A DNA stretch of 64,000 nt from Candidatus Thorarchaeota archaeon (GTDB lineage Archaea; Asgardarchaeota; Thorarchaeia; Thorarchaeales; Thorarchaeaceae): NCBI GenBank assembly GCA_029855935.1, contig JAGSHN010000004.1:32001-96000 (forward strand). Direction: 5' to 3'. Positions 47,650-52,368 of the stretch are shown here, in pieces. Under the pieces are notes generated by a model. That model was not told the origin of the DNA. It did not search any database and was given only the letters and a program-made list of their open reading frames with translations. The position numbers and the translations under genes were made by a program. Position 1 is the first letter of the stretch; every line of letters begins with the position of its first letter.

Positions 47650-48086
47650 GCAGGTCAGACAACAAGAATGTGGAGCCGATGCCTGTCGCCCGACACACTA
47701 ACTCCCAACGTCACAGCATCGGAGTGTTCCGGCTCCGTTGAGTGGTCTCGTGGTGGGCCGTGACGGCATCGGTCCACCTGCCAATGTGTGAGCCGTGGGT
47801 GACACCAGTCTCATCTGCGGATGGCTGGACCATCCATCATCGACTAGGTCCGTCTTGGCTCGATGCTTGACAGGTGAGCAGGATGTCGCCCGCCCCTTGC
47901 GCTGCACTTCATCGATCAGAGATCTCCGTGTGCCCTCGTGAGCGGGACTTTCTCCTGACACACATCAGTCCGCGAGAGGATATTAGCCTTGTTGTGCGTC
48001 GCGTAGCATACTCGCCAGTCGAAAAATGGTTGGGAGTGCAGTCCCGTATGACAACGTTCAAATACAAGGCCCCTCCCGTAGGAGAA

Positions 48087-48378
48087 GTGACGTGATTGTA
48101 TCACGCTCACATCAACATAATCATAATTACCGTATCACAAGACGCCACGGGGTCTCGTGACTCGGAGAAGGAAGAGTCAGCGAGCGACCGCAAGAGATGA
48201 AATGAAACGCTTATGACTCTCATCACATCACAGGATCATCAAGTCACAGTCATTTCGAATCTCTAAGGGAGAGTTCACAGGGGAATAGTCCGGCTGTATA
48301 GAGGAATGAAAGGGGAACACCCTAGAGAAGTGGGGTCGCGGCGATAACTTCTCAGAGTCATTGTAAAGACACGTGGCG
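48087..48378 (+). ncRNA. candidate long structured leader or ncRNA upstream of dnaG
   Basis: TATA-like CAACG-TTCAAATA at 48052-48064; nested helices spanning 48143-48378 (see findings). Confidence 0.5.
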
Positions 48379-48397
48379 GGACACATGGGAGACGTGC

Positions 48398-49699
48398 ATG
48401 GAAATAGGAACCGACTTTGATCAGAGCACTGCCAAATACGTCATCAGAGCCCGAATAGATATTGACGGCGTTGTTGACAAGCCCGATGTCATTGGGGCCA
48501 TCTTCGGACAGACGGAGGGACTCCTCGGCGAGGACCTCGACCTACGCGAGTTACAACGAACTGGTAGAATAGGGAGGATACAGATTGCCATCAGGTCAGA
48601 GGGTGGTACCAGCAAAGGCGAGATTGTGATTCCCGTGTCACTGAACAAGACTGCCACTGCCATTCTTGCAGCCGCTCTCGAAACCGTTGACCGGGTGGGG
48701 CCGTGTACGGCGAAGGTCACTCTCGAGAAGGTTGAGGATATCCGGGGGGCCAAACGTAGGAGGGTCGTCAGTAGAGCGATAAGCATACTAAAGGGCTGGG
48801 AAGAAGATGTGGCTCCGGGGACGGAGGAGATAACCGGTGCCGTTGAGAGAGCCAGCCGAAAGACCATTGTGAAGTTTGGTCCCGAGAAGCTTCCGGCTGG
48901 TCCCGACCTAGAGAGCAGCGATGAGATAATCATTGTCGAGGGGCGGGCCGATGTTATCAATCTACTGAAGAACGGCATAACTAATACGGTGGCTGTTGAG
49001 GGCACTCATATCCCCAAGTCCATCGTGGAACTGACGAAGAAGAAGGGGAAGCGGGTCGTAGCGTTCCTTGACGGTGACAGAGGCGGCGACCTTATTCTTC
49101 GCGAGCTGATGCAGGTGGCCAAGGTTGACTATATAGCGAGAGCGCCGGAAGGGAAGGAAGTCGAGGAGCTGACCAAGAGAGAGATATCAAAGGCGCTCCA
49201 GACAAAGATTCCCGCGGACCAAGCTCTAGCACTCGTGGAGGAGCGCAAGGCACCATCACCACGGAAACGCAAGACGCCAAAGAGATCGACAACAAGGCCG
49301 AAGAGAGAGGAAATTGCCGCTCCCCCCCCGACACCAGCGTTGGAAGCCCCTCATACGTCGCGCAGAATAGGTAGATCCGTTGTCAGGCCGCCCATCGAGC
49401 TTGATGAGGAATATATTGCGAAGGTTGACGAGATAAGGGAGTCGTTCAGAGCAGTGCTGTTCGATGCAGAGAAGAACATCATTGCTGAATGCGGTGTTGC
49501 CGAACTGACGAGGCATCTGGAGGATGTGGAGTCGGTCCACACTATCGTGTTCGATGGAGTTGTCACCCAGAGACTTGTTGACCTAGCCGCAAAGAAGGGG
49601 GCCACACTCATAATTGGGGCTGCAGCTGCGGACATTGAAAACAAACCACCGGGTCTGAGGTATATCACGTTCGAGGACATAGACCGCAGAAGACAGTAG
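48398..49699 (+). CDS. dnaG: archaeal DnaG (TOPRIM; exosome-associated)
   Basis: DVIGAIFGQTEGLLG, LRELQRTGRIGRI, IVEGRADV, FLDGDRGG, FDGVVTQRL. Confidence 0.97.
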   Translation: MEIGTDFDQSTAKYVIRARIDIDGVVDKPDVIGAIFGQTEGLLGEDLDLRELQRTGRIGRIQIAIRSEGGTSKGEIVIPVSLNKTATAILAAALETVDRVGPCTAKVTLEKVEDIRGAKRRRVVSRAISILKGWEEDVAPGTEEITGAVERASRKTIVKFGPEKLPAGPDLESSDEIIIVEGRADVINLLKNGITNTVAVEGTHIPKSIVELTKKKGKRVVAFLDGDRGGDLILRELMQVAKVDYIARAPEGKEVEELTKREISKALQTKIPADQALALVEERKAPSPRKRKTPKRSTTRPKREEIAAPPPTPALEAPHTSRRIGRSVVRPPIELDEEYIAKVDEIRESFRAVLFDAEKNIIAECGVAELTRHLEDVESVHTIVFDGVVTQRLVDLAAKKGATLIIGAAAADIENKPPGLRYITFEDIDRRRQ

Positions 49700-49787: not shown

Positions 49788-51248
49788 GTGCTAGGCCTAT
49801 TGGACAGTATCGAGTCCACAGCCGATATCCCGATACCGGAAGACCCGTTTGAGAGGATAGTAGGACAGGACCGTGCCGTCGCACTTGTGAGAACCGCCGT
49901 CCTGCAGCGGCGCCATGTTCTTCTCTGTGGGGCGCCAGGCGTTGGAAAGTCCATGCTTGCAAAGGCAGCAACAACACTTCTACCTCCACCAAGAGAAGAG
50001 ATTCAGATACACAACAATCCTAGCCAGCCAAACCGGCCGACTGTGGTAGTTCGTCACTACGATGAGAGAACAGAGAACTCCCGGTCACACCAGACCGAGA
50101 GTGAGCTGTGGAGTGGAGCGGAAACCTACTATGTACGCCCCGAGGACCTGCCGTTCGATGTTGCTGTGAAGATGGGGTATAGATGCCCCAACTGTGGGGC
50201 GCTCTCAATCCCCGACCAGGGAGTATGTTTTGACTGTGGAGGGGCAAAGCGCTGCGACTGGAGGGGAACAGATGCGTACATTGGACTGTTCAGAGCACTG
50301 GACGTGATATATGAGAGAGCACTCCCTGAGGTTGTCACCGAGGAGCGGGTGGCAGGTCAACAGAGGACCGTGACCTACCGGAGAGAGGGGTCACTTGACA
50401 CAATCCTTGTCACTGTCACAGAACATCGGCAGGTCGTAGAGAACGACCCCGCACCAGTCCCAGATAGCGTCAATGTGATAGTGCCAATCAACTCGCCTCG
50501 CTTTGTGAGAGTTACAGGTGCCAGTGCTGTAGAGCTCCTTGGGGACATCAGGCACGACCCCTATGGAGGCAACAGTGAGATAGGTACACCGCCATATATG
50601 AGAGTCGTACCGGGAGCAATACACGAGGCGCACGAGGGCATTCTCTACATCGACGAGATTGCCACTCTGGGGCCACTCCAGAAGTACCTGCTCACTGCGA
50701 TGCAGGACAGACAATATCCAATAGCAGGTCACAACCCTCAAAGCTCAGGTGCTGCCGTCAGGGTTGATGGCGTCCCCTGTGACTTCATCCTCTTCGCATC
50801 GACAAACCCTGAAGATCTCCCGGGAATAATTCCACCTCTCAGGTCACGGATAAGGGGCTATGGGTATGAGATCGTCCTCGCATCGTGGATGAAGAGAGAT
50901 GCACAGGCCATAGATGGGCTGGCGCGCTTTGTGGCCCAGACTGTGACGGAGGATGGGAGGATCCCACACTTCACTGTTGATGCCGTGAGAGCTGTCATCG
51001 ATGTGGCGGAGAAGATGGCACTCTCCCTCGATGGGCAGACGGACGCACTCACACTGCGGCTACGGGAACTTGGAGGAATCGTCAGAGTGGCAGGAGATCT
51101 CGCAGTGCGGGACGGGGCAGAACTGGTGGAAAAGCGTCAGGTGAAGGAGGCAGTACGGCTCAGCAACGGAGCAGTGTTGGAGTTGACCCGCGGCGGACGC
51201 GGCTCCGCATCTAAACCATCGAGGGAGTACGGAAGCTATTTCTTCTGA
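49788..51248 (+). CDS. LonB-type AAA+ ATPase without protease domain, with Zn-finger insert
   Basis: GAPGVGKS, LLGDIRHDPYG, PGAIHEAHEGILYIDEI, PLRSRIRGYGYE, LTLRLRELGG; ends about 50 aa later in YGSYFF. Confidence 0.88.
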   Translation: MLGLLDSIESTADIPIPEDPFERIVGQDRAVALVRTAVLQRRHVLLCGAPGVGKSMLAKAATTLLPPPREEIQIHNNPSQPNRPTVVVRHYDERTENSRSHQTESELWSGAETYYVRPEDLPFDVAVKMGYRCPNCGALSIPDQGVCFDCGGAKRCDWRGTDAYIGLFRALDVIYERALPEVVTEERVAGQQRTVTYRREGSLDTILVTVTEHRQVVENDPAPVPDSVNVIVPINSPRFVRVTGASAVELLGDIRHDPYGGNSEIGTPPYMRVVPGAIHEAHEGILYIDEIATLGPLQKYLLTAMQDRQYPIAGHNPQSSGAAVRVDGVPCDFILFASTNPEDLPGIIPPLRSRIRGYGYEIVLASWMKRDAQAIDGLARFVAQTVTEDGRIPHFTVDAVRAVIDVAEKMALSLDGQTDALTLRLRELGGIVRVAGDLAVRDGAELVEKRQVKEAVRLSNGAVLELTRGGRGSASKPSREYGSYFF

Positions 51249-51279: not shown

Positions 51280-52368
51280 GTGAAGATCCTCAAGCGCGAC
51301 CTGAGAGAGGGAAAGATCACACTGAAGATTGAAACCCTTGACGACCTCTGGCATCTGTACAATGTGATTCAGGTCGGAGACACTGTAATAGGACGCACAA
51401 CACGACGGGTGCGGATTGGTGACGAGGACTCAAGGAAACAGGAGAGCGTGAGAAAAACTATGACGCTCACGCTCAAGGTTGATGACGTGTCGTTTCACAG
51501 CTTTGCGAACAGGGTCAGAATCAAGGGGAGGATTCTGCAGGGCCCAGCCGACTTAGTCAGCATTGGCTCCTTTCATACTCTCAACATTGAGTTGGGGAAC
51601 ACCATTACGATAATCAAGGAACACTGGCCACAGTACATCCTGAAACGGTTGGAGGAAGCGCAAAGATCGCGGGCCAGCCCAATAGCGCTGATCGTCACAA
51701 TCGAGGATGGAGTTGCAGAGCTCTTCTTGGTGGCCGACTTTGGAATAAGGCAGATGAGCAGGATAAGAACGAGTATCTCGCGGAAACGTGGAGACCAGAA
51801 GGCCTACGATTCGTCGATGAGGGAGTTCTTCCAAGAAGTTGTCACTGCAGTACGTACTGCGCTGGAACAAAATGAGGTCGGCCTGGTCGTTATCTGTGGG
51901 CCGGGGTTTGTCAAAGACCACTTCAGAGAGTTCCTCCTGAGCTCGCAAATCAAGGGCCTACCACCGGTAATCGCAGAGGCGACGAACACCACTGGCCTCC
52001 CCGCTGCCAGGGAGATTCTCTACAGAGGTGTCGTGTCAAAGGTTCTGACTGAACTGAAGATTGAAACCGAAACACGGCTGATGGAAGAACTACTGACACA
52101 TATTGCGAAAGATGACGGCCTGGGCGCATATGGAGATGAGGATGTCGCAAGGGCTGTGCAGTTCGGAGCAGTTGAACATCTTCTCATAACAGACCGCAGA
52201 CTCAGGCAGGTCCCCAACAACGAGAGGAGAGAGATGGACACGCTCATACGCGAAACCGAACGGTCACGAGGGGCAGTTCATATCGTATCGACAGAACATC
52301 CTGCGGGTGATCAGCTCGATAGCCTCGGGGGAATTGCCGCCATCCTGAGATTCAGAATAGAACACTGA
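51280..52368 (+). CDS. pelA: ribosome rescue / mRNA surveillance protein pelota (Dom34)
   Basis: ETLDDLWHLYN, GSFHTL, GPGFVK, AYG, LGGIAAILRF. Confidence 0.96.
   Translation: MKILKRDLREGKITLKIETLDDLWHLYNVIQVGDTVIGRTTRRVRIGDEDSRKQESVRKTMTLTLKVDDVSFHSFANRVRIKGRILQGPADLVSIGSFHTLNIELGNTITIIKEHWPQYILKRLEEAQRSRASPIALIVTIEDGVAELFLVADFGIRQMSRIRTSISRKRGDQKAYDSSMREFFQEVVTAVRTALEQNEVGLVVICGPGFVKDHFREFLLSSQIKGLPPVIAEATNTTGLPAAREILYRGVVSKVLTELKIETETRLMEELLTHIAKDDGLGAYGDEDVARAVQFGAVEHLLITDRRLRQVPNNERREMDTLIRETERSRGAVHIVSTEHPAGDQLDSLGGIAAILRFRIEH

Follow-up and report, generated by a model that had tools for sequence, protein, structure and literature searches.

A soluble, protease-less ATPase of the LonB lineage in Thorarchaeota with an HbYX-type C terminus and a candidate role at the 20S proteasome

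Protein quality control in archaea is dominated by two ATP-dependent systems, the membrane-bound protease LonB and the 20S proteasome, which acts with PAN, Cdc48 or AMA. PAN, Cdc48/VAT and AMA are protease-less, and their flexible tails end in a small or hydrophobic residue followed by Tyr or Phe and any last residue. Other protease-less AAA+ rings are HslU (ClpY) and the actinobacterial Mpa/ARC, the C-terminal tails of which insert between the subunits of proteasome-type peptidases and activate the peptidase; Mpa uses a variant HbYX motif. By definition, LonB has an insert between Walker A and Walker B that carries transmembrane helices and anchors the protein in the membrane (PMC9569914). 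Here, we describe an open reading frame (ORF) in a 64,000-nucleotide (nt) stretch of DNA from a Candidatus Thorarchaeota archaeon (assembly GCA_029855935.1, contig JAGSHN010000004.1, positions 32,001 to 96,000; "the window" in the following), which encodes an ATPase of the LonB lineage without a protease domain. An earlier interpretation of the letters of the window (the sequence-only reading) had suggested that this ORF is a Lon motor repurposed as a proteasome activator or as a stand-alone remodeler.

The LonB profile TIGR00764 (NCBIfam) matched the ORF with an E value of 3e-102, but of its 608 positions only 4-102 and 148-392 were covered. At 343.3 bits, the score was below the curated equivalog cut-off of 516.6. 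Since the profile was matched only up to position 392 and the score was under the cut-off, we conclude that the protease part is missing. In line with this, Pfam analysis of the ORF detected no Lon_C domain (PF05362, the Ser-Lys proteolytic domain), and the absence of the protease domain claimed in the sequence-only reading was thus confirmed. Pfam did match the ORF to AAA-type domains, to zinc-ribbon families and, weakly, to the LonB lid. The last residue matched by the LonB profile is residue 460, and the ORF ends 26 residues further. The AAA+ motifs were intact, and each motif quoted in the earlier reading was found where it had been placed (Table 1). In an alignment of 70 family sequences, Walker A, D289, E290, N340, R352, R354, R426, the four Cys residues and the HDPY sequence were invariant or more than 90% conserved.

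The closest solved relatives by sequence were the structures 3k1j and 4zpx of the Thermococcus onnurineus LonB (TonLonB; E about 1e-79). The alignment to these structures was interrupted exactly at the insert and stopped at the lid. Y259 of the ORF aligned with F216 of TonLonB, which we take to line the axial pore. An AlphaFold2 model, for which the family alignment was used as input, had a mean predicted local distance difference test (pLDDT) value of 87.9 and showed the insert as a separate domain. When this model was compared to known structures using Foldseek, TonLonB was ranked first (E value 1e-34) and the LonC protein of Meiothermus taiwanensis (MtaLonC, PDB 4fw9) second (E value 1e-13). 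ComM, MCM and BchI followed at lower ranks with low TM-scores, and RuvB was also among the weaker neighbors. PAN models matched the ORF with E values of 0.0035 to 0.05 and covered Walker A only; the best matches were of the Lon lineage.

With archaeal LonB (TIGR00764; MEROPS S16.005), the ORF has the B-type AAA+ module in common, and in residues 238-460 the two are approximately 50% identical. Both have a long aromatic pore loop 1, an arginine finger, sensor 2 and the LonB lid, and in both a large insert is located at an equivalent site, after Walker A and before Walker B. In contrast to LonB, the ORF has neither the Ser-Lys protease domain nor the transmembrane hairpin, its insert is a soluble zinc ribbon domain, its disordered tail has an HbYX-type end, and it falls into a separate clan in phylogenetic trees. 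MtaLonC resembles the ORF as a soluble Lon protein with an insert in the AAA-like module. However, LonC has a protease, a degenerate ATPase and a helical insert, whereas the ORF has an intact ATPase, no protease and no Pfam match to LonC_helical. The ORF very probably encodes an active, soluble, ring-forming protein translocase of the Lon lineage with a zinc ribbon recognition domain. The ring would be a hexamer, as judged solely by homology to TonLonB, and would presumably translocate polypeptides.

The insert is located at the site of the LonB membrane anchor. The maximum Kyte-Doolittle mean over 19 residues was 1.02 for the ORF, which has no hydrophobic stretch, and the zinc ribbon domain aligned at the position of the transmembrane hairpin of canonical Asgard LonB. 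The modeled insert combines a helix with the zinc ribbon and an antiparallel sheet of three to four strands. A Foldseek search with the insert alone returned no neighbor at E < 0.04. The best VIA-align match was PAS-like, with a Z value of 4.5 that was within the noise; no known fold was clearly matched. The sequence-only reading had stated that the membrane insert of LonB is replaced in this protein. A hydrophilic zinc ribbon region is indeed present at the hairpin site, but a local replacement event does not fit the ancient paralogue family described below.

Next to the catalytic residues, the C terminus was the most conserved feature. The tether leaves the lid where the protease domain of LonB would start, and the last three 10-residue blocks (approximately 26 residues) had mean pLDDT values of 60, 51 and 43, with residues 478-486 below 50. 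HbYX was defined by Forouzan et al. 2012 (PMC3493965) as [LVIMGAPFYW][FY]x in a survey of classical AAA proteins only. The terminal Y-F-F of the ORF, directly followed by the stop codon, fits this pattern, and the HbYX-like aromatic end noted earlier is therefore borne out. The pattern was found in all 151 distinct thorarchaeotal-type sequences (consensus [SDN]-Y-[FY]-[FLI]), each with a penultimate Phe or Tyr, and in 95 of the 172 distinct sequences from other lineages. In the latter group, 63 more had Ser or Thr at position -3, and the penultimate residue was Phe or Tyr in 162. As controls, 36 representatives of canonical LonB were analyzed, of which 2 matched the pattern and 4 had a penultimate Phe or Tyr. 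Furthermore, among the 2165 ORFs of at least 200 amino acids (aa) in this genome, the penultimate residue was Tyr in 1.8% and Phe in 2.5%. Over the whole family, 313 of the 323 distinct sequences had Phe or Tyr as the penultimate residue, compared to approximately 4% of the long ORFs of the genome, which is far beyond chance. Conserved aromatic C termini had been named as a check on the sequence-only reading, and they were found across orthologues and phyla. The linker ahead of the motif varies in sequence and length. In sister lineages within Asgard, the tails end in LYG or RYG and resemble those of p97 and PAN.

According to a recent model (eLife 2025), YX together with the C-terminal carboxylate on alpha-K66 provides binding to the 20S alpha ring, while occupancy of the Hb pocket, for which Tyr or Phe suffices, opens the gate. 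By this model, the thorarchaeotal tail, with Tyr as Hb, looks competent for gate opening, and the tails of other lineages with Gly or Ser as Hb may mainly bind. A penultimate Phe has a natural precedent in PAN-A of Methanosarcina mazei, which activates its own 20S proteasome; its F439Y variant is stronger (Forouzan et al. 2012, PMC3493965).

Judged from trees and genome contents, the ORF is a member of an old archaeal paralogue family. A single branch separated the family from canonical LonB in trees based on shared columns. Its support was 100% in FastTree (86 rows) and, by the Shimodaira-Hasegawa-like approximate likelihood ratio test, 99% under a mixture model in IQ-TREE (42 rows). Genomes of phyla outside Asgard keep canonical LonB beside the ATPase. 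This coexistence and the split in the trees argue for an old paralogue and not for a truncation, and a recent truncation of LonB was ruled out by the trees. The idea of a Lon motor repurposed in a local event had to be given up, since the family is ancient, occurs in several archaeal phyla and usually stands alongside canonical LonB. Within the family, the thorarchaeotal branch is long (0.61).

The nearest homologues of the ORF were from Thorarchaeota, and members from other Asgard families were 44-49% identical and ended in LARYG, QSLYG or NLWNG. Full-length members with the zinc ribbon were found in Aciduliprofundum boonei and other DHVE2, Thermoplasmata, Methanomassiliicoccales, Cuniculiplasmataceae and Sysuiplasma. 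More were found in Methanobacterium (including the complete M. ferruginis genome), a metagenome-assembled genome of Methanopyri, Altiarchaeota, Anstonellales and Korarchaeota; members also occur in DPANN. Cultured Thermoplasmatales carry the family as well, namely Thermoplasma acidophilum (Q9HLX6), Thermoplasma volcanium (P58275), Picrophilus and Thermogymnomonas. Q9HLX6 has 493 aa and ends in DDRSYE, and both it and P58275 have the Swiss-Prot name "Putative lon protease homolog." The ORF is colinear with the Q9HLX6-type family, at 42-48% identity, and shares its zinc ribbon and tail type. It differs from that type in that the thorarchaeotal tether is shortened and the motif is shifted to Y-F-F instead of x-Y-x, in the downstream pelota gene, and in that canonical LonB was not found in the thorarchaeotal genome. 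The cluster of the family in the ESM Atlas carries the automatic label "LonB like ATP-ase no protease domain." Our literature searches found no paper describing a protease-less LonB-like family, and ProEnd does not mention it; the family is thus labeled in annotation resources, yet no descriptive paper on it was found. Two metagenomic proteins of 442-443 aa (P0146 and P0178) form a sub-branch of the family, in which the tail and HDPY are lost and Walker B is changed to LYLPD or LYISD. By these sequence changes, the sub-branch likely consists of inactive derivatives.

We also analyzed the Lon and proteasome content of the genome, the assembly of which comprises 2.97 Mb and is 97.3% complete. 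Genome-wide, PF05362 (Lon_C), PF13541 (Lon-like ChlI) and a LonC-like protein from a second thorarchaeotal genome all remained without a match, and the ATPase gene is the sole LonB-like locus. A separately encoded Lon protease domain, which the sequence-only reading had named as a finding that would speak against it, was therefore not detected with PF05362 or PF13541 in this nearly complete genome. Canonical LonB was not found in any of the 41 Thorarchaeaceae genomes sampled. Lon_C was unmatched in 35 of them, and the other 6 had only LonC-like proteins of approximately 800 aa. One such protein of 802 aa, from Thorarchaeota bin27 (CP070761.1; L116:1417-3825), showed LonC_helical, AAA_32, the LonB lid and a partial Lon_C. 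The protease-less ATPase was present in 26 of 26 Thorarchaeaceae genomes.

The genome encodes two alpha and two beta subunits of the 20S proteasome, and the family ATPase coexists with the 20S proteasome in every genome checked. Alpha1 keeps L21 and V24, and the equivalent of K66 is presumably kept in both alpha paralogues, as judged by the alignment offset and the T. acidophilum numbering. The second paralogue, alpha2 (C8:76791-77570 (+), outside the window), has the sequence GRIFAAEYA, as was the case in 6 of 6 Thorarchaeaceae genomes checked. Its Ala-Ala corresponds to the Q23-V24 site of the HbYX hydrophobic pocket in T. acidophilum, while the alpha2 proteins of other Asgard archaea keep Q-V. 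This change occurred in the lineage in which the tail became Y-F-F; since it is a single evolutionary event, it is only a weak lead to co-evolution. Another AAA protein, encoded outside the window (C17:119178-120323 (+)) in an open frame that spans 381 aa, has PDYVL as its C-terminal sequence, with an aromatic residue at position -3 only, which is not the HbYX register.

We consider docking on the 20S proteasome the best reading of this Lon-lineage unfoldase. It is suggested by the C terminus, which is the most conserved noncatalytic feature across phyla, is carried on a variable tether and leaves the ATPase on the protease-side face. The protein would form a soluble AAA+ ring of the LonB lineage that never had a protease domain of its own or lost it very early. 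Its ATP hydrolysis would drive the substrate through the aromatic pore loop (Y259), and the zinc ribbon insert on the entry side, at the site of the LonB membrane anchor, would recognize substrates or a partner. The C-terminal tethers would emerge on the exit face, where the protease ring of LonB would sit, and Y-F-F would enter the pockets between neighboring subunits in the alpha ring of the 20S proteasome (K66 and the V24/L21 pocket). In this way, the 20S proteasome would stand in for the missing protease, as with PAN, Cdc48 and AMA; both binding to the 20S proteasome and its opening are deduced here from the tail. In contrast to PAN, Cdc48 and AMA, the ORF is of the Lon lineage and not of the classical AAA clade. 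For recognition, it would use a zinc ribbon inside the AAA fold in place of an N-domain (coiled coil/OB or double-psi barrel). HslU and Mpa/ARC belong to other AAA+ clades, have other inserts (the I-domain of HslU) and occur in other domains of life.

Several observations weigh against docking. The HbYX ATPases known so far belong to the classical AAA clade and not to the Lon lineage, and this genome already has one PAN (ending in FYG) and two Cdc48 proteins (ending in AYV and AYI). Aromatic C-terminal tails can serve other partners; for example, eukaryotic p97 uses its LYG tail to bind PUB and PUL domains. In most members outside Thorarchaeota, the Hb residue is Gly or Ser, with which binding would be possible but opening poor by the eLife 2025 model. 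The thorarchaeotal tail has Phe in the penultimate position, and in M. mazei PAN-A this residue is less effective than Tyr. A few members are tail-less, and one genome with such a member (Anstonellales) has 20S subunits. In this one genome, tail loss did not go along with proteasome loss, and the idea of such a correlation was dropped. Finally, the strongest genomic link of the family is to dnaG and not to proteasome genes. Because binding is putative, dnaG is the strongest link and such tails can have other partners, we give docking an even chance.

The gene neighborhood was analyzed in loci with enough flanking sequence, 32 from Thorarchaeota and 40 from other lineages. The dnaG gene was located directly upstream on the same strand in 31/32 and 37/40 of these loci, respectively (68/72 together). 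In 21 of the loci outside Thorarchaeota, the gap between dnaG and the ATPase gene was 25 nt or less, often with a 4-nt overlap. Downstream, pelota was found in 31/32 thorarchaeotal loci but in 0/40 of the others, and pelota coupling was therefore rejected as a family trait. Moreover, since the wider neighborhood is syntenic in Thorarchaeaceae, the adjacency of pelota carries little weight. The sequence-only reading had pointed to pelota as the neighboring gene: it does start 31 nt downstream of the ATPase gene, but the conserved partner is dnaG, and pelota is a neighbor in Thorarchaeota only. No proteasome gene was adjacent to the ATPase gene in any locus examined. Among proteins longer than 852 aa, no fusion to DnaG or to a protease was found, which is weak evidence. 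In two Asgard families lacking dnaG upstream, a class I S-adenosylmethionine-dependent methyltransferase gene was located 3' of the ATPase gene (L022:3958-4875 (-), where the genes overlap, and L025:3919-4734 (-)); the neighbors in L025 encode the tRNA-intron endonuclease EndA, LigT and the CCA-adding enzyme. The LYG and RYG tails are kept in lineages without dnaG adjacency.

This neighborhood could be explained by a stand-alone remodeler working with DnaG and the exosome, which strips or unfolds proteins of RNA-protein or primase complexes without handing them over to a protease, its tail docking on DnaG or another cofactor or regulating the ring. The near-constant dnaG adjacency, often with a tight gap, favors this explanation, as do the RNA-processing genes that still surround some loci without dnaG, pelota as the next gene in Thorarchaeota and the lack of a neighboring proteasome gene in all loci examined. 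Nevertheless, we regard it as rather unlikely. The tail persists where dnaG adjacency is lost, and a free C-terminal x-[YF]-x that follows a variable tether is what characterizes alpha-ring docking. Furthermore, a DnaG fusion was not detected among proteins longer than 852 aa, although this is weak evidence, and cotranscription is no proof of contact. The dnaG operon and the zinc ribbon would also suit a helicase or a translocase of nucleic acids that partners the DnaG primase, comparable to DnaB-DnaG and the Lon-related helicases ComM and RadA, and ComM, MCM and RuvB do appear among the weaker structural neighbors. However, by far the closest relatives are LonB proteases, the TM-scores of ComM and MCM are only 0.2-0.3, and the aromatic HDPY pore loop, which aligns with F216 of TonLonB, is of the polypeptide-translocase type. 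Since this explanation would also leave the tail without a role, we consider it highly improbable.

If the protein does hand over substrates, the recipient could be another separately encoded peptidase, such as a stand-alone Lon-like domain, a LonC-like protein or another self-compartmentalizing protease. It is common for an AAA+ motor and its protease to be separate proteins (ClpX-ClpP and HslU-HslV), HslU also uses C-terminal tails, and LonC-like proteins exist in 6/41 Thorarchaeaceae genomes. Yet this genome has no Lon_C, ChlI or LonC-like match, the LonC-like proteins have an ATPase-like module of their own, and in other phyla the complete LonB coexists, which needs no extra motor; such a partner is thus improbable. 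That two of the three LonB modules are absent could also point to a decaying, truncated LonB pseudogene or to an assembly artifact. The chance of this is negligible, since full-length orthologues with invariant catalytic motifs exist in several phyla, the family is on one side of a branch with 99-100% support, and no Thorarchaeaceae genome among the 26 lacked it. Docking on the 20S proteasome remains our preferred reading.

The features of the locus are listed in Table 1. An alternative start codon, TTG at 49800, would give a protein of 482 aa and is used in a public gene call. We favor the GTG start, which has a GGGG stretch before it and with which the N termini of orthologues agree. The sequence encoding GSYFF together with the TGA stop codon spans 51231-51248. 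The end of dnaG and the start of the ATPase gene are 88 nt apart. The approximately 750 nt located 5' of dnaG (47650-48397) contain no credible ORF.

Table 1. Features of the ATPase gene and its flanking genes (positions in the window)
Feature	Position	Strand	Remark
Protease-less soluble LonB-lineage AAA+ ATPase ORF, 486 aa	49788..51248	+	GTG start
Walker A GAPGVGKS, residues 48-55	49929..49952	+	G48, P50, G51, G53 and K54 invariant (70 family sequences)
Insert domain, approximately residues 87-237, located after Walker A and before pore loop 1	50046..50498	+	At the LonB membrane-anchor site
Zinc ribbon CPNC-x10-CFDC, residues 133-150	50184..50237	+	Cys 133, 136, 147, 150 and K154 family-invariant
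Pore loop 1 RHDPYGG	50550..50570	+	H256 and P258 invariant; D257 and Y259 >90% conserved
Walker B LYIDE, residues 286-290	50643..50657	+	D289 and E290 invariant
PLRSRIRGYG, residues 350-359, arginine-finger region	50835..50864	+	R352 and R354 invariant
LTLRLRELGG, residues 421-430, sensor-2 region of lid	51048..51077	+	R426 invariant; weak LonB_AAA-LID Pfam match
Disordered C-terminal tether, residues 469-486	51192..51245	+	Predicted structure
Terminal Y-F-F, HbYX-type motif (Hb = Tyr, penultimate Phe)	51237..51245	+	Sequence pattern
dnaG (archaeal Toprim primase and exosome subunit), conserved upstream partner	48398..49699	+	NF003108, 490 bits
pelota	51280..52368	+	TIGR00111, 313 bits; 31 nt past the ATPase stop

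In a Lon motor with the proteasome as its protease, the LonB and 20S systems would cross over. We tentatively propose, with somewhat less than even confidence, that the family represents a so far overlooked third class of proteasome regulators in archaea, the tails of which dock in alpha-ring pockets and which feed the 20S proteasome. In Thorarchaeota, where LonB was not found and alpha2 has Ala-Ala at the Q23-V24 site, the ATPase would then be the sole Lon-type route of quality control and might couple DnaG/exosome and pelota to proteolysis. This would add a regulator that is invisible to the published survey, because the latter was limited to classical AAA proteins (Forouzan et al. 2012). 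In T. acidophilum, the classic 20S model organism without PAN, the family member would be a second candidate gatekeeper beside Cdc48. In addition, dnaG accompanies the family almost universally, which may hint at a connection of protein unfolding to RNA or primase complexes.

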